Under the pieces are notes generated by a model. The model was not told the DNA's origin. It saw only the letters and a program-made list of their open reading frames with translations, and searched no databases. Made by a program: the position numbers and the translations under genes. Below, piece by piece: positions 4,393 to 63,895 of a DNA stretch of 64,000 bases; positions within the stretch are counted from its first letter, which is position 1, and each line of letters opens with the position of its first letter. Source of the DNA: Chloroflexota bacterium (GTDB taxonomy: Bacteria > Chloroflexota > Anaerolineae > DTLA01); the NCBI GenBank assembly GCA_014360805.1, contig JACIWU010000005.1:1206-65205 (forward strand). The letters run 5' to 3'.

Positions 4393-4574
4393 CGGTGAGT
4401 TCGCTCCCGCTCGGATGTTCACCTGCTGGGCCGTTGGCCGTCAGCCTCTAGCCTTTGGCCGATAGCCTTTAGCCCCTAGCCTCTAGCCCTTGGCACTTCG
4501 CTGGTGGCCAGCCTTTCGGGCTGACCGCTGCCCGCTGACGGCTAACGGCTAATGGCTAACGGCTAGCGGCTCAT

Positions 4575-10870: not shown

Positions 10871-11018
10871 GCGCAGCCTCCTTAATCGGGCAATATCGGA
10901 TTCTCCGCCTACCTTTAAATCTACCTGAACCGACAGATTTAAGACGAGCCGTTCTTGACTTTAGGCCCCGAAAGGCTTATCCTAGAAACGCAACCAAATC
11001 CACGGGAAGGGGCTTCAG

Positions 11019-11663
11019 ATGTACCGTCATCCCTACATTGCCATTGAAGGGCCCATCGGCGTAGGCAAGACCACGCTGGCCCGCCTTCTCCAGCCCGAAC
11101 TGGGCGCGTCGCTGCTGCTAGAAGTCTTTGAAGAAAACCCGTTTCTGAAGGACTTCTACCGCGACCGAGAGCGCTACGCCTTCCAGACGCAGATCTTCTT
11201 CCTGCTCAGCCGCTACCACCAGCAACACAAAGCCGTCCCCAAGGCGTTGGAAAAAGGCCCCCTCATCAGCGACTACACCTTCGCCAAAGACCGCATCTTC
11301 GCGCACCTGAACCTGCGCAACGAAGAACTGGCGCTGTACGAGCAACTCCACGCCGCGATGGCCGAGAAGATTCCCGTGCCCACGCTGGTCATCTACCTGC
11401 GCGCATCCTTGGACGCGCTGATGGAACGGATCGCCCTGCGCGACCGCCCCTACGAGCGCAACATGGACCGCGACTACATCCGCGAACTCAGCGAAGCCTA
11501 CGAGCGGTTCTTTGAGCATTATACCCAAAGTCCGGTTTTGACGCTAGACACGGACACCCTGAACTACGTCCGCAATTCCGACGACCTGAACCTGGTCCTG
11601 GAGCGAGTCCGAAGCGCCCTGCGCCACGCGCCGTACCAGCAGCCGCTCATTGAAATCCCGTAG
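11019..11663 (+). CDS. Deoxynucleoside kinase (dAK/dCK/dGK family), paralog 1
   Basis: IAIEGPIGVGKTTLARLL P-loop. dNK-family length and motifs (ERY..FQ, DRI). Confidence 0.8.
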   Translation: MYRHPYIAIEGPIGVGKTTLARLLQPELGASLLLEVFEENPFLKDFYRDRERYAFQTQIFFLLSRYHQQHKAVPKALEKGPLISDYTFAKDRIFAHLNLRNEELALYEQLHAAMAEKIPVPTLVIYLRASLDALMERIALRDRPYERNMDRDYIRELSEAYERFFEHYTQSPVLTLDTDTLNYVRNSDDLNLVLERVRSALRHAPYQQPLIEIP

Positions 11664-11721
11664 CCCCATACCCACCGGCAAGGACAGGTTCATCCAATTC
11701 CTCATGTGAGGCGACGAGAGC

Positions 11722-12357
11722 ATGGGCAAGTTTATCGCAGTGGCGGGGAATGTGGGCGTCGGCAAGTCCACGCTGACACACCTGTTGAGCGCGCGGCTGG
11801 GCTGGGAGCCGTTCTATGAAGCCGTGGACGACAACCCGTATCTGGCGGACTTCTACAGCGACATGCGGCGATGGAGTTTCCACTCGCAGATCTTCTTCCT
11901 GTCGCGCCGCCTGCGCCACCATCGGGAAATCCTCAGCCACCCCAATACGGTGATCCAGGACCGCAGCGTGTACGAAGACGCGGAAATCTTCGCCCGCAAC
12001 CTGTATCTCCAGGGGCACATGCAGGCCCGCGACTACCGCTGCTACCGCGAATTGTACGAGGTGCTGACCCAGTTCCTGCCCCCGCCGGACCTGGTCGTGT
12101 ACCTGCGGGCCTCGGTGCCCACGCTCCAGCATCGCATCGCGCTGCGCGGGCGCGACTTTGAACGCCAGATTCCCGACGAGTACCTGGCCCAGTTGAACAC
12201 CCTGTACGAGGACTGGATTGAAGGCTTCACCCTCTGCCCTGTGCTCACGGTTCCCGCCGACCAGTTGGACTTCGTGAAGTACAACTCGCACCTTGAGTTG
12301 ATCTGCGAGAAAATCCTAGACAAACTTCAGGGGAAGGAAGTCGTCGTCTTTGACTGA
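11722..12357 (+). CDS. Deoxynucleoside kinase, paralog 2 (tandem with 11019..11663)
   Basis: IAVAGNVGVGKSTLTHLL P-loop. About 35% identical to the upstream paralog by eye. Tandem dAK/dGK-like arrangement. Confidence 0.8.
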   Translation: MGKFIAVAGNVGVGKSTLTHLLSARLGWEPFYEAVDDNPYLADFYSDMRRWSFHSQIFFLSRRLRHHREILSHPNTVIQDRSVYEDAEIFARNLYLQGHMQARDYRCYRELYEVLTQFLPPPDLVVYLRASVPTLQHRIALRGRDFERQIPDEYLAQLNTLYEDWIEGFTLCPVLTVPADQLDFVKYNSHLELICEKILDKLQGKEVVVFD

Positions 12358-12374
12358 CCCTCGGCAAGAACGAT

Positions 12375-12810
12375 ACTTCGCGCAGATTCGTACTATTCGT
12401 AGATGCGCATGACCCCGCGCGGGGCTGAACCCCCGCGCTACGTGGGCGAAGCCCCCTCCGGGGGCTAACCCCAGCCCGCAGGGCATCGCCCTCTCAGCCC
12501 GATGCTTCAGCGTCGGGCGGGCACGCCAGCACATCCCCTCTCCCACTGGGAGAGGGCTAGGGTGAGGGGCGACGCGCGGGGCTGAACCCCCGCGCTACGT
12601 GGGCGAAGCCTCCTCCGGGGGCTAACCCCAGCCCGCAGGGCTTCGCCCTCTCAGCCCGATGCTTCAGCGTCGGGCGACAAGGAACCGCGAACCCACGCGA
12701 ATAAACGCGAATTTGCCCCAGCCCGCAGGGCTTCGCCCCTTCAGCCCGATGCTTCAGCGTCGGGCTGAACACCCTTCGCGCAGATTCGTGTGATTCCTGG
12801 ATGCCCATGA
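12375..12810. repeat. Non-coding structured repeat block (family B). Two full ~100-bp copies (12415..12508 and 12574..12676) and one partial copy (12716..12776), bracketed by about 35-bp direct repeats (12376..12413 and 12774..12812)
   Basis: The unit gggctgaacccccgcgctacgtgggcgaagccccctccgggggctaaccccagcccgcagggcttcgccctctcagcccgatgcttcagcgtcgggcg contains nested inverted repeats: gggcgaagcc/ggcttcgccc, ccccctccggggg and cagcccga/tcgggctg. ORFs 12316..12546 and 12557..12808 in the track are artefacts of this block. Confidence 0.8.
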
Positions 12811-12828
12811 CCTGCTTTTTGACAGCAG

Positions 12829-12857
12829 CCCCTCCAAATGGTACAATATGTCAGACA
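12829..12857 (+). promoter_or_regulatory. Consensus sigma70 promoter: TTGACA, 17 bp spacer, TACAAT
   Basis: Exact -35 hexamer (12829..12834) and -10 TACAAT (12852..12857), 65 nt upstream of the 12923 ATG. GGAGG RBS at 12911. Confidence 0.7.
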
Positions 12858-12858
12858 T

Positions 12859-12874
12859 CTGACAAACCTGCCGA
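12859..12874 (+). promoter_or_regulatory. Perfect 7-2-7 palindromic operator-like site TGTCAGA-CA-TCTGACA overlapping the predicted transcription start
   Basis: Begins 2 nt after the -10 box. No matching palindrome elsewhere in the window. Confidence 0.5.
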
Positions 12875-12922
12875 GGACGCATCCGACCGCAAACGGCAGG
12901 AAGCATACCACGGAGGCAAGGC

Positions 12923-14392
12923 ATGATTGACCTGACCCTTCACCCTGAATCTCTGCAACGTTCGGTGCAGCGGGCCCGCGAACGGCACATCATCATCCCC
13001 ACCTTCGCCCAGATGAAAGACCCGTCGCTCATCCCCGACTCCATCAAGGCGCGGCTGAAGAACGTCGGCTTGTGGGACGTGAATCCCCTCAACCTGTTCC
13101 GCATCACGTGGAAGAACGAGCCGGTGCCCTTCGGCGGCGGGTTTGACGGGGTCAACTACGTGGAACTGCCGCCTTCGCTAACGGGGGTGCCCGCCCGCAT
13201 CATCGCCCTCGTGGGCAAATGGTTCCCCACGGGCGCGCACAAGGTGGGCGCCACCTTTGGCTGCCTGGTTCCGCGGCTGGTAACGGGCCAGTTTGACCCT
13301 TCCTACCACAAGGCCGTCTGGCCGTCCACCGGCAACTTCTGCCGGGGCGGGGCGTACAACGCCGCGCTCCTGGGTTGCGAGTCCATCGCCATCCTGCCCG
13401 AGGAAATGAGCCGCGAGCGGTTTGAGTGGCTATCCAAACTCGCCGGCGAGGTGATCGCCACCCCAGGCTGCGAAAGCAACGTCAAGGAAATCTTTGACAA
13501 ATGCTGGGAACTCCGCAGGACCCGCGGCGACAAAGTCTTCATCTTCAACCAGTTTGAGGAGTTCGGCAACTACCTTTGGCATTACGAGGTCACCGGCCAC
13601 GCGATGGAAGAAGTGCTGCGCCAGGTGATGGGGCCGCGCGACGAGTACCGAGGCGTGGTGCTCACCACCGGCTCGGCGGGCACCATCGGCTGCGGCGACT
13701 ACATGAAGCAGGTCTTCCCCGCCAGCAAGGTCGCCGCCAGCGAGGCGCTCCAGTGTCCCACGCTGCTCCTCAACGGCTTCGGCGGACACCGCATTGAGGG
13801 CATCGGCGACAAGCACGTGCCCTGGGTGCACAACATCAAGAACACCGATCTCGTGATGGCCATAGACGACGAAGCGTGCGTCAGCCTGGTGCGCCTATTC
13901 AACGAGCCGGCCGGTCGGGCCTACCTGGTCAAGCGCGGCGTCCCCGAATCCCTCGTCGGGCGGCTGGACCTGCTGGGCATCTCCAGCATCGCCAACGTCC
14001 TGTCGGCCATCAAGTTCGCCAAGTGGTACGAACTCGGCGAGCACGACATCGTGCTGACGGTCTGGACCGACTCCATGGAACTGTACCAGAGCCGCGTGCA
14101 GGAATTGCGCGCCGAGCGCGGCGAGTACACCGAAAAGGACGCCGCGGCCGACTACAGCCGCTACCTGCTGGGGTGCAGCGTGGACTACGTGGAGGAACTG
14201 GGCTACTGGGACCGCAAGCGGGTGCACAACCTCAAGTACTTCACATGGGTAGAGCAGCAGGGCAAGACCGTGGCCGAGATTCAGGCCCAGTGGTACGACC
14301 CGGACTACTGGACCGGGTTCCAGCGCCAGGTTCCGGAGATAGACGCGCTCATCCAGCAGTTCAACGAGATGACGGGATTGCTGAAGGGCTAG
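12923..14392 (+). CDS. PLP-dependent fold-type II enzyme, TrpB-like (tryptophan synthase beta-related) family
   Basis: 489 aa. The FPTGAHKVGA motif resembles the TrpB HTGAHK lysine motif. Gly-rich GSAGTIGCG PLP-phosphate loop. C-terminal extension. Confidence 0.6.
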   Translation: MIDLTLHPESLQRSVQRARERHIIIPTFAQMKDPSLIPDSIKARLKNVGLWDVNPLNLFRITWKNEPVPFGGGFDGVNYVELPPSLTGVPARIIALVGKWFPTGAHKVGATFGCLVPRLVTGQFDPSYHKAVWPSTGNFCRGGAYNAALLGCESIAILPEEMSRERFEWLSKLAGEVIATPGCESNVKEIFDKCWELRRTRGDKVFIFNQFEEFGNYLWHYEVTGHAMEEVLRQVMGPRDEYRGVVLTTGSAGTIGCGDYMKQVFPASKVAASEALQCPTLLLNGFGGHRIEGIGDKHVPWVHNIKNTDLVMAIDDEACVSLVRLFNEPAGRAYLVKRGVPESLVGRLDLLGISSIANVLSAIKFAKWYELGEHDIVLTVWTDSMELYQSRVQELRAERGEYTEKDAAADYSRYLLGCSVDYVEELGYWDRKRVHNLKYFTWVEQQGKTVAEIQAQWYDPDYWTGFQRQVPEIDALIQQFNEMTGLLKG

Positions 14393-14582
14393 CCCGTAGC
14401 CCATCCGTAGGGCAGGTTTCCATACCTGACCTATGGATGGGGGGGCAGCCCGCAGGGGGTTACCCCTCACATCCCCCTGACCCCCTTCTCTCCCCGCAGG
14501 CGGGGCGAAAAGGGGGAATGGGCGCGCGGGGCTGGGCCGTCTCCTCTCCCGCCGAGAGTATGGGCGACGCATGCGGTAGGAG

Positions 14583-14617
14583 CGACACATGTGTCGGGGC
14601 GACACATGTATCGCCCC
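14583..14617. other. Two adjacent ACATGT-centred palindromes (CGACACATGTGTCG perfect 14-mer; GGGCGACACATGTATCGCCC) in a convergent intergenic gap
   Basis: Seen directly in the sequence. Lies between the 3' ends of the TrpB-like gene and the nitroreductase gene. Confidence 0.5.
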
Positions 14618-14638
14618 TACTTTGCGCCGGGCGCGGCA

Positions 14639-15217
14639 TCACTCGCGGCTCCCTGCGCCCTCCCCGAACGTCCAGCGATCCCACGCCACCGTCTCCGCAA
14701 ACGGCTTGCGCGTGCGCGGCTTCTCATCCTTGGCCCGCGTCTCCTCGTCCAGCAGGTCAATGGGGCCTTCGTATCCCAGCGCGACCACCGCCACGACGCT
14801 GTACGCTTCCGGGATGTCCAGGGCCGCCTTCACCTTGGGCGCGCTGTAGCCAGCCATCGGGTGGCCCATCAGCCCCTCCTGCACGGCCGCCAGCAGCAGG
14901 TTCTCCACCCCCAACCCGCACGCGAACAGATGGTACGAGACGGGGTCATCCTTGCGCACATAGTCGTCCTCGGCCCGTGCGCACACCGCGATGAGCACCG
15001 GAGCCTTCCACGCCCAGCGGTTGCCGCGGTTCAGCGCCTCCCGAAATGCCGCCAGGCGCTGCGGGTCGCGCACCACGACAAACCGCCACGGCTGATTGTT
15101 GTTGGCCGAGGGAGCCCAGCGCGCCGCCTCCAAAATGCGCAGCAGGGCATCTTCGGGCACGGGTTTGTCCAGAAAGGACCGCTTGCTATGTCGGCGGAAG
15201 AAAAGAGAGTCCTCCAT
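14639..15217 (-). CDS. Nitroreductase family protein (start placed at MEDSLFF)
   Basis: RHSKRSFLDKPVPEDALLRILEAARWAPSANNNQPWRFVVV is a canonical nitroreductase N-terminus. The 20-aa upstream extension in the track is optional. Confidence 0.75.
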   Translation of the reverse strand: MEDSLFFRRHSKRSFLDKPVPEDALLRILEAARWAPSANNNQPWRFVVVRDPQRLAAFREALNRGNRWAWKAPVLIAVCARAEDDYVRKDDPVSYHLFACGLGVENLLLAAVQEGLMGHPMAGYSAPKVKAALDIPEAYSVVAVVALGYEGPIDLLDEETRAKDEKPRTRKPFAETVAWDRWTFGEGAGSRE

Positions 15218-15284
15218 AAGAACCCCCGAGCGTGGTAATTTGCGCGAAACTATAGGACGGACAGCCGTGGGTGTCAAACCGAGC

Positions 15285-18014
15285 CTAGCGGCCTACTTTG
15301 GGAATCCACAGCCGATAGCGCGGCGTGGGCGTCGGACTTGGAGTCGGGCTAGGGGTTGGGCCGGGCGGCGTGCCCACGCTCACCTGGTCTATGACGGCCA
15401 CGGTGGGCCGCTGCGAGGAGTCCTGCCAGACGTTGAGAATCAACTGCACGGTGCGCCCGCGCCACGGCGAAAGGTCGTACACGAACAGTTGCCAGCCCGG
15501 CGTCGTCTGCCACACCGTGCGCGGCGGCATCGGCTCGTACCGCGTCGTGCCATCAATGAGGAGCACCTCCAGCCAGTCGTGGCCGGCCTCGCTCTCCAGG
15601 GTTACCACCTGGTACACAAGCGACAGGTACACCGGCGATTGCGTCTGCGGTATGGCGATGCTCTGGCTGACGGTGGAATTGCCGCCGCCGCCCAACTCCG
15701 GCTGGCCCACGAAGTCCTTGCCCAGCGCCAGCGACCGCAGGCCGGCGAACCCGGCGGTGTGAACCTGCGCGGGCGTACTCCCGCCAGGGGTCCAGCCCTC
15801 CAGCCCCGCCTCAAAATCCCCGTTGCTGACCAGGTTCACCCCAGGCGCGACGAACACGTCAAACCCCGCCACGCTTCCATCCAGCCGCAGATGGCGCGGC
15901 GACCAGGGGCTATACCCCAGCGCGTAGCCGCGGATGCCGTAGTCGCCCTTCGGAAGCCCCGCCACTTGCCACCAGCCCGACTCGTCGGCGGCGATGGTGC
16001 TCGGCATGCCCCAGGCGTTGGTTACAATCACGCTCCCGCCGGGCACCGGCGTGCCCAGGGGGTTCAGGATGCGCCCGCTGAGGACCGTGCTGGCAATCGG
16101 CGTGGGCGTCGGCGTGGCCGTGGGCTGGGGCGTTGCCGTCGGCGTGCTGGGCAGCGCGATGACGGTCTCGGTCTGCGCGGCGCGAGGCGTCGCTCCGGCG
16201 TTGCCGGCGCGGTCCACGCCGCGCGCCGCGAACCCATACGAATGCCCGGGCACGCCGCTGTAGGTCGCCGACGTGGCTTGCGTGCCCTGCAACCACAACA
16301 CCATCGGCCCGCCGTCCACGGACACGAACACATCGTAGGCGACGACGCCCGACCCCTCATCCGTTCCCTGCCAGGAGACCGTGAAACTCGTCGGGCTGTA
16401 CAGGGGAAGATCTTGCACGGTAACGACTGGCGGCGTAGTGTCCCGCTCCACCAGCATCAGCGGGCGACCGCCGATCATGTAGGTGATATGATCGGGCAGG
16501 TTGCGATTGGTGGCGGCAGGCAGCATCACCGTGTACGCCCCGTTCGTAGGGGTCAGAGGCTGCGCCGAGCCGTCCTGGCCAAGCGCCATAGCCTGGGTTC
16601 CCACCGCGCCCACCTGAACAACGACGGGCGACCCACGCGTGGCCCACAGGAACAGCACGCGCTCGCGCGTGTCGGGGCGATAGTAGGCGATCTCCTCGTG
16701 GTCGCCCTGAAGGTTGCGCCGCCAGAGGGGGATCGCCCCGTTGAGGTACGCGGCCGCCAGTTGGTAAGCCTTGTACGAGGGCCGAGGCGAATTGGGCGAC
16801 GAATGGCTCCGAAAACAGATGGCGTCGGCGGGGTTCCGGTACAGCCCGTAGGCATCGCCCACGTCGTTCGTGCCCGCGGGACTGTTGCCGCAATCGTCGT
16901 ACAATTGGAAATGGAAAATCCGCTCGGCGCCGGCGTAGAACCCGTAGGCGTAGTTCTGGATGATGTAAGCCGCCTGCTCCTCCATCGTGGCGCGGTACAG
17001 GCTGGCAGGGTCCCACGTGGGGCCTGGATAGTCGTTCCAGACCGGCACGCCGCTCTCGTTGATCCAGATGGCCTTCGCCCCCAGGCCGTACTTCTGGAGC
17101 AGCGTGCGCACGCGCCGCACCTGGTAGTATGTCTCATACGACGTGCTGTAGATGTGCAGAGGGAGGACGTCAAAGTACCAGCCATTGGCGTCGCGCTGCG
17201 TCCGCGCGGTGTCGGCCTTCATGACCTCCAGCAGGTTTTCCAGCCAGTTGGGCGTGATGTAGATGGCCAGGCCGCCCAAGAGCACCGTGCAATCCGGATC
17301 GGCGAACTTGGCCGCGATGTACGCCACCTTCAGTAGGCGATAGTAGTCCTGCACCGAGCCGTTCCAGAACAGGGCGTAGTCCGGCTCGTTCCAAATCTCC
17401 CAGTGGCGGATGCGCGGGGTGTAGCGCGCCACAGCCTCGTAAACAAACCTGGCCCACGGGTTGGCAGAGTTGACGCTCTTGCCCGGAGCCGGAATATCCG
17501 TGCCATCGCTGAAGATCGGCGCGTATAGATTCTTGGGCGCGGAACTGGCCGGGCTAATCGGTTGCCGCTCGCTCGGCCCGGATAGGGGCACCGGCCGCTT
17601 GCCCACCTGCGGCAGAGGCGCGCCGCTCTGCCCAGCCGTCGCGTACTGGGAAGGCGTGCCCAGCAGGATGGCGTTGGTCCTGAGTCCGTTGGCCTGATCG
17701 GACGCGACGACGCGGTCCACGGCGCTCCAATCAAAAGCGCCGCTGCTCTGCTCCACGTTCCCCCAGTAGATGGGCCAGCGGTTCCAGGCCGCGCCGGCGG
17801 CAACCGCCTTGCCATACCGCCCCGCGTCCGCGGGAGCCTCGGCGGAACTCACGAAACACAGGCCGAAGCGGTCGTTGAGTGGCACCGTCTGGCCGATGAC
17901 CTCATCCGGCTCGGGCGGGCGGAACGCGCCCACCGCGGCAGGCCCGGGCACCTGCGTGAGGGCCAGGCAGACGACGATGTACAGGAGCCCCAACCGCAAC
18001 CGACGCGATGTCAT
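15285..18014 (-). CDS. Secreted multidomain glycoside hydrolase (clan GH-A TIM barrel, GH5/GH39-like) with FN3-like, Thr/Pro linker and C-terminal carbohydrate-binding-like domains. Start re-placed at ATG 18014 (MTSRRLRLGLLYIVV...)
   Basis: Signal peptide. HWEIWNEPD catalytic-acid motif. Linkers PTPTATPQPTATPTPTPIAS and [14 protein letters not shown]. The 136-codon upstream extension in the track overlaps the next gene and is not coding. Confidence 0.7.
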   Translation of the reverse strand: MTSRRLRLGLLYIVVCLALTQVPGPAAVGAFRPPEPDEVIGQTVPLNDRFGLCFVSSAEAPADAGRYGKAVAAGAAWNRWPIYWGNVEQSSGAFDWSAVDRVVASDQANGLRTNAILLGTPSQYATAGQSGAPLPQVGKRPVPLSGPSERQPISPASSAPKNLYAPIFSDGTDIPAPGKSVNSANPWARFVYEAVARYTPRIRHWEIWNEPDYALFWNGSVQDYYRLLKVAYIAAKFADPDCTVLLGGLAIYITPNWLENLLEVMKADTARTQRDANGWYFDVLPLHIYSTSYETYYQVRRVRTLLQKYGLGAKAIWINESGVPVWNDYPGPTWDPASLYRATMEEQAAYIIQNYAYGFYAGAERIFHFQLYDDCGNSPAGTNDVGDAYGLYRNPADAICFRSHSSPNSPRPSYKAYQLAAAYLNGAIPLWRRNLQGDHEEIAYYRPDTRERVLFLWATRGSPVVVQVGAVGTQAMALGQDGSAQPLTPTNGAYTVMLPAATNRNLPDHITYMIGGRPLMLVERDTTPPVVTVQDLPLYSPTSFTVSWQGTDEGSGVVAYDVFVSVDGGPMVLWLQGTQATSATYSGVPGHSYGFAARGVDRAGNAGATPRAAQTETVIALPSTPTATPQPTATPTPTPIASTVLSGRILNPLGTPVPGGSVIVTNAWGMPSTIAADESGWWQVAGLPKGDYGIRGYALGYSPWSPRHLRLDGSVAGFDVFVAPGVNLVSNGDFEAGLEGWTPGGSTPAQVHTAGFAGLRSLALGKDFVGQPELGGGGNSTVSQSIAIPQTQSPVYLSLVYQVVTLESEAGHDWLEVLLIDGTTRYEPMPPRTVWQTTPGWQLFVYDLSPWRGRTVQLILNVWQDSSQRPTVAVIDQVSVGTPPGPTPSPTPSPTPTPRYRLWIPKVGR

Positions 18015-18037
18015 TTGCCCTTCCCGCTCTCCCTGGA

Positions 18038-18526
18038 TTAGAACTCCACGGTCTCGGCCTCGTGGGTTTCCGTATCGTACAACGCAAAAGTCGGCTTCCC
18101 GAAACGCCCCATCACCTCGCCTGGGTTGAGCACCAGGGTGCGCCCCTCCCACGTGTGGACGGCCTTGTGGGTGTGGCCGAAGAAGACGGCGTCGTACCGT
18201 CCCGACGGGGCGATGGCCGCGGCGATGTGCGGGTAATGGGTCAGCGCGATCTTCCGGCCGCCCAGTTCCAATTCCGCCAGGCCATCCGTGTACAGGCGAA
18301 CGCGCCCGCTCCCCGAGGCCACGCGGAGCAGAAGCGCCACGTCGCCGTCGTTGTTGCCCTGCATGACGTGGATCGGCCCCGCGAACCCGTCGGCCAGCAT
18401 CTTCAGCGAGAACGGCGCGCACAGGTCGCCGCAGAACAGGAGCACATCGGCCCCCTGAACCCGCCGCAGCGCCTTCTCCAGATTCCAGATGTTGTCGTGG
18501 CTATCGGACATGACCGCGATCTTCAT
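18038..18526 (-). CDS. Metallophosphoesterase, YfcE/MJ0936 family (start at MKIAVMSDSHDN)
   Basis: MKIAVMSDSHDN...GDLCAP...GNND...GHTH motifs of the calcineurin-like phosphodiesterase family. 163 aa. Confidence 0.75.
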   Translation of the reverse strand: MKIAVMSDSHDNIWNLEKALRRVQGADVLLFCGDLCAPFSLKMLADGFAGPIHVMQGNNDGDVALLLRVASGSGRVRLYTDGLAELELGGRKIALTHYPHIAAAIAPSGRYDAVFFGHTHKAVHTWEGRTLVLNPGEVMGRFGKPTFALYDTETHEAETVEF

Positions 18527-18763
18527 GCACACCTCCTGCACCGAGAGAGTTGCAGGAAGTATACCACAGCCGTGCGGTGTTGACAGGAGACACCGTGCAA
18601 CTTGCGGGCCAAACCCGCGGCGAAGGCGCGAAGCAAGGCATGCGCGAACCGTGCGCGGCGCCCCGATCCGCCTGGACCTACGTGGGTCCACTTCGCGTCA
18701 GACTCAGTTCCAAACCGGATTGGTCTGTCCCGCACACCGCCTTCCCGCTCCTTGTCATGCTGA

Positions 18764-18897
18764 GCCGAAGGCAGAGGGCAGGTATGGAAACCTGCCCTAC
18801 ACTCGCCATGGGTTGGCGCCGCAATCCCAAGACCCGTAGGGCGGCTTTCCATAGCCGCCCAAGGCAGAAGCCGGGCACGGAAACCTGCCCTACGGCC
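18764..18897. repeat. Family A double-hairpin repeat: one partial copy (18764..18800) and one full copy (18836..18897)
   Basis: cgtagggcggctttccatagccgcc...ggaaacctgccctacgg. Matches copies at 22251, 22359, 32468, 41750, 51890 and 63834. Confidence 0.8.
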
Positions 18898-22250: not shown

Positions 22251-22412
22251 CTGCGGGGCGGCTTCCCATAGCCGCCAACAGGGCAGGTATGGAAACCTGC
22301 CCTACGTATCCACGAATAACACGAATTCACACGAATGGAGAATAGACCCCAAAAGTTTCGTAGGGCGGCTTCCCATAGCCGCCAACAGGGCAGGTATGGA
22401 AACCTGCCCTAC
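22251..22412. repeat. Two tandem family A double-hairpin copies (22251..22310 and 22359..22412) with a conserved cgaataacacgaat flank
   Basis: ggcggcttcccatagccgccaacagggcaggtatggaaacctgccctac occurs twice. Track ORFs 22213..22434 and 22096..22278 are artefacts of this repeat. Confidence 0.8.
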
Positions 22413-22599: not shown

Positions 22600-24153
22600 A
22601 TGACCAGAGGACAAATCGCTCTGCTCGTTGCACTTGGCGCGACGGTGCTGGCCGTATATGTTCTGCTCGGTCTGCTGGTAGCAGGGCGCATCCCCATCGG
22701 CTTGCCGCCCGCCCCCACCGACATGCCCGTGCCGACCCCCACCCTGACCCCCGCCCCCGGCATGAGCCGCCAGAACCCCATGCCCTTCGGCGAGACCATT
22801 GCCACCGACAGCATGGAAATCCACGTCCTTGAGGTGCACCGCCACGCCAATGCGCTCATCTCCCCCCTCAACTCGCCCATCCCAGAAGGCCACGAGGTGG
22901 TCGTGGTCAACGTGGAGGTGCACAACCGTGGAACCGCGCCCATCACCCTAAGCCCGGGGACGTTTCGGCTGACGGGAGACCGCGCCATCCTCTACCAGCG
23001 GCCGCCGCTGCTGCTGGACAACGAACTGCGCGGGGAACTGGCCCCCGGCGAGAGCCGCTCGGGCTACCTGGCCTTCGTCGTGGCCGACGGGGAGGACAAC
23101 CTGGCCCTGGCGTTCATCCCATCGGGGAGCATGTCAGACGAAGGGGCGCGGTGGCTGTGGGCCGACCCCGATGCGAACCCCCAGGCCTTCGCCGTCCAGG
23201 GGGTAGCCCCGACGGCCTCGCCGCGCACCGGCGGGAGCCGCCTCAACCCCGCCCTCATGCGCCAGCCCGCCGTGGCCGACGACCAACTGGAGATCAGCGT
23301 CCTCGCCGTCCAGCGAGACGCCTGGCCCGTCATACGGGAGATGAGCCCACTGAACCAGCCGCCCGAACCCGACAAAGAGTACGTGCTCGTGCGCCTGCGC
23401 GTGCGCTTCGTGGGCCAGATGGATCAACTCCTGTCGGTCAACTGGTGGGCCTTCCGCATGACCGGCGCGGACAACATCCTGTACCCCAACCCGTCGCTCA
23501 TCCTGACGGATGAACTCAAGGGCGACCTGTTCCCGACCGGCACGTTGGAGGGCAACCTGGCGTTCCAGGTGCGGCGCGGGGAAGAGAACCTCATCCTGGC
23601 GTATGACCCTTCGGGCGTGGGGGTGAAAATCGGGCGGGGGGTTCGCTGGTTCTGGGCCACCGAGACGCCCAACCTGGATTTGCTGAAGATGCCGGTGCGG
23701 GCGTCGGCGGCCCTGCCCGCTTCGGGGCGCTCGTCGCAGCAGCCCGCGCCCATTGGCGTGCCCGTGCTGTCCGACGGGCAGATAGAGATCACGGTGGAGG
23801 ACGCGGTTCTCCTGCCCGACGACGCCAGCACCTGGGATCGGTGGACGCTGCCCGTGCCCGAACCGGGGAGGCACTACGTGGTCGTTACGGTGGTGGCGCG
23901 GAACCTGGCGCCGGAGGAGCGCCCCCAGGCGATCCACTGGGATGGCTTCCTGCTGCACGAGCCGGCGGGGGCTTCGGTGTACAAGCCCACCGTGCTGGGG
24001 GGCTGCGAACTTGAGGGCGACGCTTTCACCGGCGCCACGCTGCGGGCCTATCTGGTCTTCCAGGTGGCCAGCGGCCAGCGGTTCCTCCTCTCCTACGACC
24101 CCGCCGGCCTGGGCAACACCATGTCCTACCGGTGGTTCGCCATAGAACTGTAG
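22600..24153 (+). CDS. Membrane-anchored protein with three tandem DUF4352-like (Ig-like) domains of about 150 aa each
   Basis: N-terminal TM helix, Pro/Thr linker, then three repeats sharing the pattern ...EI.VL.V.R...........EYVLV.L.V.N.G.....S..WF.L.G.....Y.P......EL.G.L.PG....G.LAF.V.... Confidence 0.55.
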   Translation: MTRGQIALLVALGATVLAVYVLLGLLVAGRIPIGLPPAPTDMPVPTPTLTPAPGMSRQNPMPFGETIATDSMEIHVLEVHRHANALISPLNSPIPEGHEVVVVNVEVHNRGTAPITLSPGTFRLTGDRAILYQRPPLLLDNELRGELAPGESRSGYLAFVVADGEDNLALAFIPSGSMSDEGARWLWADPDANPQAFAVQGVAPTASPRTGGSRLNPALMRQPAVADDQLEISVLAVQRDAWPVIREMSPLNQPPEPDKEYVLVRLRVRFVGQMDQLLSVNWWAFRMTGADNILYPNPSLILTDELKGDLFPTGTLEGNLAFQVRRGEENLILAYDPSGVGVKIGRGVRWFWATETPNLDLLKMPVRASAALPASGRSSQQPAPIGVPVLSDGQIEITVEDAVLLPDDASTWDRWTLPVPEPGRHYVVVTVVARNLAPEERPQAIHWDGFLLHEPAGASVYKPTVLGGCELEGDAFTGATLRAYLVFQVASGQRFLLSYDPAGLGNTMSYRWFAIEL

Positions 24154-27596: not shown

Positions 27597-27659
27597 ATGC
27601 ACGGGAGACCCCGAATCGGTTCCAAAGCACGGAGCGCCCGAAGCAATCGCCGTCGGGCC

Positions 27660-27950
27660 GGCGGGGCGCACACCCCACCCCAACCCCATTCGCGTGGATT
27701 CGCGCGATTCGCGATGACGGTTGGGGGCGACAACGTGCGCCGCACCTTCGCCTCCGCCGCAGGCAGGGAATGTAGAGCAAATTGGCAATTTGCTCTACAC
27801 GCGCGGGGCTAACCCCAGCCCGCAGGGCTTTGCACCTTCAGCCCGATGCTTTAGCGTCAGGCCGGCGGGGCGCACACCCCACCCCAACCCCCATTCGCGT
27901 GGATTCGCGCGATTCGCGATGACGGTTGGGGGCGACAACGTGCGCCGCAA
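27660..27950. repeat. Composite repeat region: an approximately 85-bp direct repeat (27660..27745 and 27862..27950) flanking a partial family B copy (27801..27862)
   Basis: ggcgcacaccccaccccaaccccattcgcgtggattcgcgcgattcgcgatgacggttgggggcgacaacgtgcgccgca occurs twice. Between them, gctaaccccagcccgcagggctttgcaccttcagcccgatgctttagcgtcagg matches the 12.4-kb repeat unit. Confidence 0.8.
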
Positions 27951-28085
27951 GTAACCGCCTTCGCGCGAATTCGTGCGATTCGCAGACGTCCATCGCCCTG
28001 GCGAGGCGGCGCGATGGCCCGTCGGAACCGAGCCCAGGGCGCGCGGGATTTTTCAGTATCGGGCAGGTATGGTAAAATATGCGAC

Positions 28086-32467: not shown

Positions 32468-32528
32468 GCGTAGGGCAGGTTTCCATACCTGCCCCCTGCG
32501 TCCGGCGGCTATGGAAAGCCGCCCTACG
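32468..32528. repeat. Family A double-hairpin repeat, inverted orientation
   Basis: cgtagggcaggtttccatacctgccccctgcgtccggcggctatggaaagccgccctacg. Confidence 0.8.
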
Positions 32529-39561: not shown

Positions 39562-40179
39562 TCACCCCGTCTGCGAAATCTCGTCGGGGACGCCGTCGTT
39601 GTACACGCCCTCGCGCCGAAGCACGACCCCCACCGTCTGCCACAGGATTTTCAGATCAAGGGCGTAGGACCAATGATCCACGTACCAGACATCGCGCTCT
39701 ATGCGCTGGGGCCAGGTGAGTTGATTCCTGCCGTTGACCTGGGCCAGGCCGGTTACGCCCGGGCGCACCAGCAGTCGCCGCCGCTGGAAGTCGTTGTACT
39801 TCTCCACCTGGTAGGCCAGCGTGGGCCGCGGCCCCACCAGGCTCATGTCGCCCACCAGGATGTTGAAGAACTGCGGCAGTTCGTCCAGGCTGTACTGGCG
39901 CAGGAAGCGGCCCACCCTCGTTACGCGGGGGTCGTTGTCGTGGGTGTGATACCCCAGCGGGTGCGCGGTGGCGTTCTGCACCATGGTGCGAAACTTGAAG
40001 ATGCGGAAGATGCGCCCATCCTTGCCCACGCGCTCCTGCCGGAAGAAGACCGGGCCGGGCGAATCCAACTTGATCGCAACCGCGATGACGAGGAACACCG
40101 GCGCCAGGAGCGCCAGGCCGACGACCGAGACCACGATGTCCGTCGCCCGTTTGAGAAACCGCTGAAACGCCACGCTCAT
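39562..40179 (-). CDS. Undecaprenyl-phosphate sugar phosphotransferase, small PglC/WbaP-C-terminal type (bacterial sugar transferase family). Start at MSVAFQ, abutting the upstream gene's stop
   Basis: Single N-terminal TM. KFRTM...[21 protein letters not shown] catalytic motifs. Confidence 0.8.
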
Positions 40180-41597
40180 CGCCTGCAACCGTACTGCGCC
40201 ACGCACCGGAAGCCCTCGTAGGCGCTGGAGTTGTCCACGGCGCTGTCCAGTTTCACCTGATTCACGATGGCCACCAACTCGTCGCCGGGCGCGCCTTCCA
40301 CGACCACGGAGTACTGGGCGTTGTTGGCCAGGTCGGCGTCGCTATACGTCCAGGGCCGCTCGGCCACCGACCGTCCCGGAGCCAGGGCGTAGTTCTTGAG
40401 GCCGGCGTTGGGCCACTCGGTGCCGGTGTTGAAGTCGTAGTAACGCACTGTTACCGTGGCCGTAACCGCGCCCACGTTCTGGATGATGATGGGCGTGATG
40501 TAGCCGTAGTAGCCCTTGACCACGTTGGGCAGGAACACGTACTGCGCGCCTTCGTTGAAGCCGTTGTAGGCCGAGCCGTCCTTGTGATCGGCCAGGTTGC
40601 GGTTCTGATTGACGATGGCCACCAGTTCGTCGCCCGGCTGCCCCCGCACCACGACGGAATACTGCTTGTTGGGCGGCAGAACGTTGTCGGGGTAGGTCCA
40701 CGGGCGCTCGGGCAGGGAGCGGCCCGGCTTCAGTTCGTAGTTCTTCTTGCCGGCCAGCGGGTAGAACGTGCCATCAAACCCGTAGTACTCCACGTTGACG
40801 TAGGCCGTTGTCGTGCCGACATTCTGGATGATGGCGGGGGTGATGTAGCCCGCGTACCCCTTGACCATATTGGGCAGGTACACATTCGGCCCGCCCGACG
40901 GGAAGCCCGAATAGGCCAGGTCGGTGTCGCGCCCGACCTGGTTCACCGCGCCGACGATGGACTGCCCGACGTCCGCCGTCGCCACCACCGCGTACTGTTT
41001 GTTGGTGGGCAGTTCGGAGTTGGGGGCAACCGCCGGGTCGTACTCGTAACTAACGTTGGGCGGCAGGACGATCACGCGCTTGGCGCTCTCAATGGGGTTG
41101 CCGGTATTGAAGTCAAAGAACTCAATGGTAACCGTGGCGTCGGTGTCGCCGCTGTTCTGGATGTAGAACGGCGTGCTGAAGCCATAGTAGTGCTTGGTGA
41201 TGTTGGGCAGGAAGACCTTGCGCGTGCCCGGTTCCAGGGCGTTGTAGGCCATCTCGCGGCCCGTGGCCAGTTCGTTGACCACCCCCGCCAGCGGACGGGT
41301 GCCGTGGATGACCATGGAGTACATGCCGTCGGTGAGAGCGGGGTCGGGGTTGAGATAGGGGCGGACGGCGCGCGCGCGGCCCGGCTCCAACTGGAAGGTC
41401 TCGCGGGCCGAGGGGATGTACGCGCTGTCGGACATGCGGTAGTAGTCCACGAAGACCGTGGCCGTAGCGTCGCCCATGTTCTGCACGACGACCGGCGAGC
41501 GCCAGACCATCCCCGGCGGGTAACTGCCCTGTCCCTGCGCCGCGATGGGGAGGAGCAGGACGATCACGGCCACGGCGACGACCAGCGACTTTCTCAT
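40176..41597 (-). CDS. Secreted hypothetical protein with four tandem repeats of about 95 aa. Start at ATG 41597 (MRKSLVVAVAVIVLLLPIAAQG), with AAGGAGGG RBS
   Basis: Signal peptide. Repeat core (V/F)(F/Y)LPN(I/M/V)(T/V)K.Y.G..TP..IQN.G...A.V.(I/V)E(F/Y)(F/Y).F. The 56-codon upstream extension in the track is rejected. Confidence 0.65.
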   Translation of the reverse strand: MRKSLVVAVAVIVLLLPIAAQGQGSYPPGMVWRSPVVVQNMGDATATVFVDYYRMSDSAYIPSARETFQLEPGRARAVRPYLNPDPALTDGMYSMVIHGTRPLAGVVNELATGREMAYNALEPGTRKVFLPNITKHYYGFSTPFYIQNSGDTDATVTIEFFDFNTGNPIESAKRVIVLPPNVSYEYDPAVAPNSELPTNKQYAVVATADVGQSIVGAVNQVGRDTDLAYSGFPSGGPNVYLPNMVKGYAGYITPAIIQNVGTTTAYVNVEYYGFDGTFYPLAGKKNYELKPGRSLPERPWTYPDNVLPPNKQYSVVVRGQPGDELVAIVNQNRNLADHKDGSAYNGFNEGAQYVFLPNVVKGYYGYITPIIIQNVGAVTATVTVRYYDFNTGTEWPNAGLKNYALAPGRSVAERPWTYSDADLANNAQYSVVVEGAPGDELVAIVNQVKLDSAVDNSSAYEGFRCVAQYGCRR

Positions 41598-41643
41598 GAC
41601 GCCCTCCTTGTGTGCGCCCCCCAAGTTCCCCCTTGCCGCGCCA

Positions 41644-41672
41644 TTATAGCGTGCCCCGCGAAAAATGACAAC
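41644..41672 (-). promoter_or_regulatory. Candidate promoter for the repeat-protein gene: -35 TTGTCA, 17 bp spacer, -10 TATAAT, within cGTGCTATAATgg
   Basis: About 40-nt leader to the RBS and ATG. Confidence 0.5.
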
Positions 41673-41700
41673 TGGGTGCGGGCTGCGCGAGCGTTCCCAC

Positions 41701-41729
41701 CTGCGACGCACCTCGGAGGTGCGTCGCAG
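41701..41729. repeat. Family C palindrome ctgcgacgcacctcggaggtgcgtcgcag
   Basis: 12-bp perfect arms around a ctcgga loop. Related copies at 43567, 47952 and 56558. Confidence 0.7.
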
Positions 41730-41749
41730 GTTGAGCCGCATAGCGAGCA

Positions 41750-41803
41750 CAGGGCGGGTTCCCATTACCTGCGCCCCCGGCGGCTATGGAAAGCCGCCCT
41801 ACG
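41750..41803. repeat. Family A double-hairpin repeat (inverted orientation, first hairpin degenerate) with the shared cgaataacacgaat flank to 41850
   Basis: cagggcgggttcccattacctgcgcccccggcggctatggaaagccgccctacg. Confidence 0.75.
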
Positions 41804-43513: not shown

Positions 43514-43566
43514 ATCGGCCCCGCGCCAGGCCGGGTTCTATTTTGTGTTGGCGTGCGAGGTGCGAC

Positions 43567-43602
43567 GCACTTCCGGAAGTGCGTCGCACCTCGGATCAGG
43601 GT
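43567..43602. repeat. Family C: perfect 36-bp palindrome gaggtgcgacgcacttccggaagtgcgtcgcacctc
   Basis: Exact reverse-complement identity over 36 nt, checked by hand. Confidence 0.85.
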
Positions 43603-47951: not shown

Positions 47952-47984
47952 GAGTGCGACACACTTTCGGAAGTGCGTCGTGCC
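47952..47984. repeat. Family C imperfect palindrome gagtgcgacacactttcggaagtgcgtcgtgcc
   Basis: Shares the gtgcgtcg core and ttcgga loop with the other family C copies. Confidence 0.6.
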
Positions 47985-48021
47985 TTCGGTCGCTAACACA
48001 AGACGGAGCCGAATGCGAAAC

Positions 48022-51889: not shown

Positions 51890-51943
51890 CGTAGGGCGGC
51901 TTTCCATAGCCACCGAAGGGCAGGTATGGAAACCTGCCCTACG
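51890..51943. repeat. Family A double-hairpin repeat (canonical orientation)
   Basis: cgtagggcggctttccatagccaccgaagggcaggtatggaaacctgccctacg. Confidence 0.8.
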
Positions 51944-56557: not shown

Positions 56558-56590
56558 CGTCGTCTTCACGTGCGACGCATCCCCGAGGGT
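56558..56590. repeat. Family C imperfect palindrome cgtgcgacgcatccccgagggtgtgtcgcacg between convergent genes
   Basis: Begins 2 nt after the ATPase stop. Could serve as a bidirectional terminator. Confidence 0.55.
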
Positions 56591-56604
56591 GTGTCGCACG
56601 GCAA

Positions 56605-63833: not shown

Positions 63834-63895
63834 CGTAGGGCGGGTTTCCATACCTGCCCCCTCTGCCTTCGGCGGCTATGGAAAGCCGCCCTACG
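63834..63895. repeat. Family A double-hairpin repeat (inverted orientation); a degenerate partial copy follows at about 63915..63960
   Basis: cgtagggcgggtttccatacctgccccctctgccttcggcggctatggaaagccgccctacg. Confidence 0.8.

Follow-up and report, generated by a model that had tools for sequence, protein, structure and literature searches.

A 64,000-nucleotide (nt) stretch of contig JACIWU010000005.1 (positions 1,206 to 65,205 of the forward strand; assembly GCA_014360805.1, a Chloroflexota bacterium of the class Anaerolineae) – referred to here as the window – carries, at 12.4–12.8 kb, a block of non-coding, hairpin-rich repeats lodged between two genes. This block is probably a mosaic cluster of hairpin modules derived from mobile elements – selfish repeat DNA that either descends from miniature inverted-repeat transposable elements (MITEs) or resembles repetitive extragenic palindromic (REP) sequences and bacterial interspersed mosaic elements (BIMEs). 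Most probably, it is mobile-element DNA that is decaying or has been amplified, and no new type of genetic system. On the best-supported reading, it is BIME-like in its organisation and the cargo of an IS1595-type MITE in its origin, and in this genome it changes by recombination, not by demonstrable transposition.

A preliminary description of the window had noted hairpin-rich units of about 100 bp, devoid of open reading frames (ORFs) and arranged head-to-tail. This is indeed what the block contains: two 105-nt units and one half unit, all intergenic. The family also recurs outside the window, with an exact copy of one of its hairpins – hairpin D – at 53 loci of 15 metagenome-assembled genome (MAG) species.

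The hairpin unit and its IS1595-type packaging

A covariance model, R1, built from an alignment of 24 copies from different genomes, describes the unit of about 104 nt as four hairpins, A to D, together with a weak closing stem, P2. Hairpin A has 8–9 bp and the loop CUGAA; hairpin D has 9 bp, including a U·G pair, and the loop UUCA (GCCCGAUGC-UUCA-GCGUCGGGC). As A is the inverted counterpart of D – their 38-nt arms are 74% complementary – the unit is itself an imperfect palindrome. Kissing between the loops of A and D (UGAA with UUCA) was considered and rejected: variants show no covariation, and the complementarity is a trivial consequence of A being inverted relative to D. A single unit folds at −71 kcal/mol, with a z-score of −4.9 against dinucleotide shuffles.

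With R1, 45 full copies on the forward strand score 70 bits or more; in their model-fitted alignment, 93% of the cells are paired and 10 pairs have changed on both sides, above shuffled and slid controls, and P2 is paired in only 78%. Truncated forms are common (ABD, CD and D alone), with breaks at the boundaries of hairpins or short repeats. In the window, the 24-mer of hairpin D occurs four times at up to three mismatches, against an expectation of 0.00.

Sought as an exact 24-mer (CAGCCCGATGCTTCAGCGTCGGGC) in one genome per species, hairpin D is confined to MAGs labelled Chloroflexota, Anaerolineae or Caldilineae – these are the 53 loci mentioned above – and has no match in viral contigs. 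As to whether the arrays sit at conserved positions, a question raised in the preliminary description, tblastn of the window's proteins against the 53 loci reveals unrelated gene contexts. The single recurrent match, to an ABC-transporter ATPase, belongs to a large family and was taken as chance. We found no description in the literature of this repeat family or of IS1595 MITEs in Chloroflexota.

In lower-GC MAGs, the A–D core lies inside a discrete, ORF-less element of 180–215 nt with terminal inverted repeats of about 23 nt, which read GGCTCatgATGngTTTCAAGGAG (GGCTC..TTTCAAGGAG). Seven low-GC genome loci and three complete metagenome loci (L100, L120 and L131; L numbers denote loci) have the core between such repeats, and a fourth metagenome MITE with the core (L076) is cut at the contig end. 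Nine of the ten low-GC copies, the three complete metagenome ones among them, are bordered by 8-bp duplications, matching at 7–8 of 8 positions; these target duplications are AT-rich (e.g. GAAATTTT, TTGATTTA, TTTTTGTT and TAATTATT). True 8-bp duplications are confined to these lower-GC relatives, where the core lies between IS1595-type inverted repeats. A published IS1595-type MITE, the 165-bp ISHwa6-related element of Haloquadratum walsbyi, likewise combines inverted repeats of 25 nt with a direct repeat of 8 bp (PMC3852290).

The same inverted repeats stand at both ends of elements of about 1.07 kb (L080, 1–1066; L135, 1–1087), which encode a Zn_ribbon_IS1595 ORF and a DDE_Tnp_IS1595 ORF. 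When metagenomes were scanned for the inverted-repeat pattern, 120 loci emerged, about 40 of them with an IS1595-type transposase beside the repeat. As cargo, the core of the MITE is unrelated in sequence to the insertion sequence itself. Its homology with the GC-rich units is not an artefact of searching with hairpin D, because a hidden Markov model (HMM) made from hairpins A-B-C of the GC-rich copies alone also recognises the cores of the low-GC elements, with E values from 1e-9 to 1e-2 in 0.5 Mb.

Two side observations concern these elements. The transposase of this abundant group of insertion sequences is split in L080 and L135 into a Zn-ribbon and a DDE ORF, and fragments from tblastn point to a similar split elsewhere in the group; the split may reflect a programmed frameshift or widespread pseudogenisation. 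There are also shorter MITEs, of 132–140 nt, with the same inverted repeats (L068, 652–783; L097, 2203–2342; L112, 726–865; L124, 199–338), with perfect 8-bp target duplications in the first three and none evident in L124. As cargo, these short MITEs carry a palindrome – three ACGAAT heptamers on either side of a GCTTCAGC centre – whose architecture resembles the order [CGCGAAT triplet][C–D][D9] found in the window at 12677–12812, D9 being a module of three TTCGCG/ATTCGTG heptamers at a (helical) period of about 10 nt.

Arrays and module turnover in GC-rich genomes

The window and the 53 loci from 15 MAGs together hold 59 sites, of which 29 are arrays of two to five units, all head-to-tail and present only in GC-rich genomes. 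What is repeated differs from array to array: C–D with D9 at a period of 89 nt, C–D with an inverted triplet at 90–91 nt, A–D at 107 nt, and A–D with the CCCTCTCCC palindrome at 157 nt, a period common to the window and L003; further periods are 172–183 nt.

Orthologous loci reveal turnover of both copy number and modules, and the breakpoints fall within repeats. Between L006 and L013, whose flanks are 93–95% identical, the difference is a block of 164 nt with a perfect 58-nt direct repeat of C–D at its borders, and the orthologous L003 and L044 have C–D in common and all other modules different. Such turnover bears the signature of slippage or recombination among repeats. In L006 (~4480–4560) and L013 (~4440–4510), the stretch of about 70 nt that separates the first C–D unit from the stop codon is strongly diverged, which suggests a fast-evolving or replaced hairpin module. 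Elsewhere, C–D or D-type copies lie within long ORFs as predicted by a crude caller (L028, 6358–6402; L007, 7261–7295) and may be candidate intragenic insertions, as reported for some REPs.

The scheme that we favour would run as follows. In the lower-GC relatives, an IS1595-family DDE transposase acting in trans would insert the core-bearing MITE, with 8-bp target duplications. In GC-rich genomes, the core without inverted repeats is joined head-to-tail with D9, the CCCTCTCCC palindrome and GTAG-type REPs, and the arrays would grow, shrink and exchange modules via replication slippage or homologous recombination between near-identical modules. Membership of the family, its structure, the MITE form with its target duplications, the tie to IS1595 and the turnover at orthologous loci are directly shown by the sequences, whereas we infer such an origin for the copies without terminal inverted repeats, as well as a lack of function. 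The array in the window would most likely have no dedicated host role; if the transcript of the upstream kinase gene enters it, its stable hairpins could, as a side effect, stop 3' exonucleases or shield the promoter downstream.

The window: array, partial copy and other repeats

The array occupies the 565-nt spacer 12358–12922 between two plus-strand genes. Directly upstream are tandem paralogous deoxynucleoside kinase genes (11019–11663 and 11722–12357; PF01712), and downstream is a gene for a pyridoxal phosphate (PLP)-dependent enzyme (12923–14392; PF00291); the flanking genes have a GC content at third codon positions (GC3) of 0.85–0.88. The window as a whole is a housekeeping region, with nuo genes, groES/EL, gyrB, sigma-70, recA/recX, RNase Y, serS and recN. 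A Pfam scan detected no transposase, Y1_Tnp or cas domain among its 52 predicted genes and no match for the antisense ORFs that overlap the array. The unit spacings are 157 and 90 nt, neither of them divisible by three.

Read along the plus strand, the array opens with a D9 copy (12376–12414; nhmmer E = 3e-8), which has three TTCGCG/ATTCGT heptamers at a period of about 10 nt and a tail ending in CATGACC. Full unit 1 follows (12415–12519; 101.4 bits with R1), with hairpins A at 12417–12438, B at 12450–12466, C at 12473–12485 and D at 12497–12518, and with P2 at 12444–12449/12486–12491. A 52-nt spacer module (12520–12571) then contains the palindrome CCCTCTCCCA-C-TGGGAGAGGG (12536–12556) and, after it, AGGGTGAGGGG; the composite of unit and palindrome is also present in MAG H111_75 (L003). 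Full unit 2 (12572–12676; 106 bits) is 98% identical to unit 1, and a repeat search gives the pair as 104-nt copies, 12416–12519 and 12573–12676, with the same identity and a spacing of 157 nt.

Next comes a 39-nt linker (12677–12715), whose three CGCGAA(T) heptamers can be read as an inverted D9-like module and which the D9 HMM did not detect in the window. The junction D-GACAAGGAACCGCGAA.. recurs in 90–91-nt tandem units of other genomes (L024, L027, L035, L037 and L053). The half unit, made up of hairpins C and D only (12716–12768; the repeat match spans 12716–12765, 96% over 50 nt; nhmmer E = 1e-11), is followed by a second D9 copy (12774–12812), which ends 7 nt 5' of the −35 box of a promoter-like site of the sigma-70 type. 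This plus-strand site (12819–12847; TTGACA-17-TACAAT with TG, 11 of 12 matches) precedes the PLP-enzyme gene, marks the boundary of the array and lies outside the repeat.

The nested inverted repeats named in the preliminary description (GGGCGAAGCC/GGCTTCGCCC, CCCCCTCCGGGGG and GCCCGA..TCGGGC) and the palindrome between units were all located in the array. The units that it delimited are real, but the end that it gave for unit 1, 12508, falls about 11 nt short of the R1 end at 12519. Tandem Repeats Finder (TRF) did not report the array, which has only about 1.7 copies of the 157-nt period. An array of clustered regularly interspaced short palindromic repeats (CRISPR), already discounted at that stage, can be rejected: the units are 105 nt long, against 21–48 nt for the direct repeats of CRISPR arrays, the 'spacers' are repeated modules instead of unique sequences, and no cas gene is found among the 52 Pfam-scanned genes. 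A weak match to CRISPR-DR28 (22.6 bits against a gathering score of 35) covers the GC-rich hairpin B only.

An independent short-read assembly of the same sample (Logan contigs, SRR11866725) contains two contigs that are 100% identical to 10967–12445 and 12738–18793 of the window. Since these matches run across the edges of the array, both junctions with unique DNA are real. The contigs break inside the repeat, at 12445, and restart at 12738; the internal copy number rests on the source assembly.

The direct repeats of about 35 bp at the two ends of the array, once thought to suggest an insertion, do not bear that reading out. They are 39 nt long and 85% identical (12376–12414 and 12774–12812), and they belong to the dispersed D9 family, with about nine copies in the window (at 12376, 12774, 22306 on the minus strand, 22417, 27689, 27894, 27959, 41822 and 57527) and dozens in other genomes; it is this dispersal that led us to reject a target-site duplication. 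D9 often follows unrelated hairpins, such as GTAG-type REPs, and as a rule begins 8–20 nt beyond a hairpin module, be it a REP or hairpin D; modules with a CGCGAAA period, which are related to it, exist in other MAGs. Some D9 copies end in GTGGATAA, an 8/9 match to the complement of the DnaA box, TTATCCACA. We also rejected the idea that D9 is, in GC-rich genomes, homologous to the inverted repeat of IS1595 or to the ACGAAT triplets of the short MITEs: its HMM has no significant match to them, and the insertion sequence has no such triplets. The likeness to the ACGAAT-triplet MITEs is one of architecture only – an unproven resemblance.

The partial unit that had been placed near 27801–27862 does exist, at 27800–27862 on the plus strand, between divergent genes. 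It has lost 38 nt internally, between two GGGGCT repeats, so that the 5' arm of A now runs straight into the 3' end of B; its C–D half is 88% identical and has three substitutions, one of which breaks a pair of the D stem. Upstream lie a diverged D-type hairpin, GCCCGA-N11-TCGGGC, read from the sequence on the plus strand (27636–27658), then the first plus-strand copy of an 89-nt composite module, X (27656–27744; a palindromic stem around three ATTCGCG heptamers, with a D9-like match at 27689), and a REP-like GTAG...CTAC palindrome, GTAGAGCAAATTGGCAATTTGCTCTAC (27772–27798), which also adjoins a unit in L001. Downstream, also on the plus strand, are the second copy of module X (27860–27949; 94% identical to the first, with one indel) and a copy of D9 (27959–27997; nhmmer E = 1.4e-6). 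The 85-bp direct repeats reported at 27.7–27.95 kb are real – about 89 nt and 94% identical – but they do not bracket an insertion. D-type hairpin and module X are duplicated together at a 204-nt period (27636–27744 and 27839–27949), and the direct repeats form part of this second-order tandem repeat.

Other repeats are scattered through the window. A separate family of GTAG...CTAC palindromes (GTAGGGCAGGTTTCCATACCTGCCCTAC, with a GGCGGCTATGGAAAGCCGCC variant) is found at 14406–14446, 18764–18893, 22256–22412, 32469–32528, 41753–41803, 51890–51943 and 63834–63895, often in inverted pairs, which is the classic organisation of GTAG-type REPs and of REP doublets forming hairpins (REPINs) (PMC3733652); no gene for a REP-associated tyrosine transposase (RAYT) is present in the window. 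A third palindromic family, GTGCGACGCACTTCCGGAAGTGCGTCGCAC, occurs at 43560–43591, 47954–47985 and 56570–56601, as well as in H111_75 and at Caldilineae MAG loci (L020, L031, L036 and L053). Directly downstream of the PLP-enzyme gene, a mosaic repeat cluster (14400–14625) combines a GTAG REP, a CCCCTTCTCTCCCCGCAGGCGGGG palindrome, a fragment resembling an arm of hairpin A (GCGCGCGGGGCTGG) and a 17-nt tandem repeat, three copies of GGGGCGACACATGTGTC (TRF).

At 22256–22305 and 22363–22412, two copies of a 50-nt REP-pair segment are 100% identical and 107 nt apart; they are flanked by D9 copies in inverted orientation and lie in the divergent spacer upstream of the gene at 22600, beside a TTGCAA-N17-TATAAT promoter-like site. 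Repeats with a period of about 345 nt and 70–74% identity (40257–41497) lie inside a minus-strand gene, 40176–41765. Its 529-residue product has no Pfam match and is probably, from the repeat period, a protein with tandem domains of about 115 residues; a Caldilineae MAG (L031) encodes a homologue with 63% identity.

Competing explanations and known systems

Several points weigh against an origin as IS1595-type MITE cargo. The window and the GC-rich loci yielded neither terminal inverted repeats nor target duplications nor a transposase: GGCTCWWNATGNRTTTCARGGAG, the inverted repeat, has no match in the window at up to three mismatches or at any GC-rich locus at up to four, no short duplications border the units of the window or the GC-rich copies, and tblastn detected no IS1595 transposase in the window or in L001–L053. 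Transposition of the GC-rich form is thus at most a supposition. The direction of descent may have followed either of two routes, with a MITE losing its inverted repeats or a MITE capturing a host module. The pairing counts given above come from a model-fitted alignment of mutually related copies, and the orientation of sites to their neighbours (10 sense, 11 antisense, 5 convergent and 4 divergent, over the 30 sites with callable neighbours) comes from a crude home-made ORF caller based on GC3.

Hairpin D poses the main puzzle. Its 24-mer is identical in all 15 species, at loci of 52–68% GC and in units of 53–76% GC, and it is exact in three of the four copies that were found through their inverted repeats, not through D itself. 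It is conserved far beyond what would be expected for the interior of a MITE, and this extreme conservation is the sole feature that could point to function. In hairpin A, too, the loop has been kept even as the stem covaries, which hints at sequence-specific recognition or function.

On balance, it is unlikely that the A–D unit works as a structured RNA and spread by selection instead of selfish amplification, be it as a multicopy small RNA or as a cis-acting part of transcripts that stabilises 3' ends, terminates transcription or insulates. Some REP/BIME and ERIC elements do act in cis within transcripts. Hairpins A, B and C show compensatory changes, the A loop (CUGAA/CUAAA) and a CGAAGCC junction are conserved, and the fixed U·G wobble of hairpin D is an A–C mismatch on the opposite strand; the fold z-score is better on the plus strand (−4.9 versus −3.0), and the window array stands in sense orientation directly downstream of a gene. 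However, orientation to flanking genes is random over the set as a whole (10 sense, 11 antisense), which argues against a strand-specific RNA role, and there is no consistent promoter or U-tract terminator. A strand test likewise found no asymmetry beyond the fixed pair, outside which G·U (59) is not enriched over A·C (52). The units occur in arbitrary truncations (CD, D and ABD) and fused to other modules, and P2 reaches a pairing of only 78%. Rfam 15 has no match in the window at its gathering scores, with the best sub-threshold match at E ≥ 0.17, and nothing significant for the window array or for one low-GC MITE even at E ≤ 10.

We would give slightly less credence to the idea, prompted by sequence conservation, that the A–D unit – and above all the invariant hairpin D – is a functional module under purifying selection, either a binding site or a structured RNA or single-stranded DNA element, recognised by a conserved Anaerolineae protein. 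Were this so, the IS1595-type MITEs would have captured the unit as cargo, and the GC-rich genomes would keep the arrays as a lineage-specific system of cis-elements instead of junk.

By analogy with REP/BIME elements, which bind gyrase and integration host factor (IHF), the modules might be protein-binding sites of the host at the DNA level, with hairpin D and the phased heptamers recognised by a nucleoid or regulatory protein. The invariance of hairpin D would fit, as would the heptamer period of about 10 nt in D9 and CGCGAAA modules across genomes and the frequent position of D9 directly upstream of promoter-like sites; the likeness of some D9 ends to the complement of the DnaA box may also fit. 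This explanation is nonetheless quite improbable, since no protein is known to bind the modules, D9 is seen in either orientation and also at the 3' ends of genes, and module content is not kept at orthologous sites.

More doubtful still are REPIN-like elements moved by a RAYT, that is, by a tyrosine transposase of the IS200/IS605 type acting on single-stranded hairpins; the machinery would come with the GTAG-tagged REPs of the same genome. The GC-rich units do resemble IS200/605-type elements in having no inverted repeats or target duplications; GTAG...CTAC palindromes are abundant in the window and adjoin the modules, and GTAG REPs have been documented in Chloroflexi (PMC3733652). Yet the hairpins of the unit have no unpaired GTAG or CGTC tag – CGTC is paired inside the D stem – and the units are always head-to-tail, never inverted dimers of the REPIN type; there is no conserved target tetranucleotide at their edges, and none of the 52 window genes encodes a Y1_Tnp domain.

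That the array is an assembly artefact, a collapsed or mis-joined repeat, is scarcely credible: its interior has no independent verification from the same-sample contigs, which stop at 12445 and resume at 12738, but its junctions with unique DNA are reproduced at 100% identity, and the combinations [unit + CCCTCTCCC palindrome], [C–D + CGCGAAT linker] and [D + D9] recur in independently assembled MAGs.

The reading of the block as a mosaic of mobile-element-derived modules supplies a concrete annotation for repeats that crowd the intergenic DNA of uncultured Anaerolineae and interrupt their short-read assemblies; the Logan contigs stop precisely within them. Tandem, hairpin-rich non-coding units have a precedent in the same phylum, in the Chloroflexi-1 RNA motif of Chloroflexus aggregans, whose Rfam model has no gathering-score match, or significant match at E ≤ 10, to the window array. 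The SNR/SRE repeats of Deinococcus radiodurans and MITEs of the ERIC/RUP type are intergenic mosaic repeats of 60–215 nt with strong hairpin potential, some with terminal inverted repeats. By its description, the present family differs from these in occurring in many species and in having an IS1595-type packaged form.

With the BIMEs and REP clusters of Enterobacteria, and with the mosaic intergenic repeats of Neisseria (dRS3, Correia and RS; discussed in PMC3733652), the family shares extragenic clusters of several types of short palindromic module, variable in order, species-wide and dispersed; moreover, GTAG-type REPs coexist with the units in the same genome. REPs, however, are defined as palindromes of 20–40 nt that carry on one side an unpaired tag, GTAG or CGTC (PMC3733652), whereas the units are untagged four-hairpin composites of about 104 nt, and all 29 unit arrays are strictly direct, not alternating or made of inverted dimers.

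From IS1595 MITEs, the window and all GC-rich copies differ in having no inverted repeats or duplications and in forming tandem head-to-tail arrays. They resemble them in that the unit is short (below about 600 nt), non-coding, multicopy and dispersed, with four copies in the window and 59 sites overall, and the lower-GC form – ORF-less, 180–215 nt long, with the inverted repeats of about 23 nt that it has in common with the 1.07-kb IS1595 sequences and with 8-bp duplications – resembles them more fully. One core appears as cargo in an active-looking MITE of the IS1595 type and, in other genomes, in satellite-like arrays without inverted repeats, a compact example of the passage from mobile fragments to REP/BIME-like mosaics.

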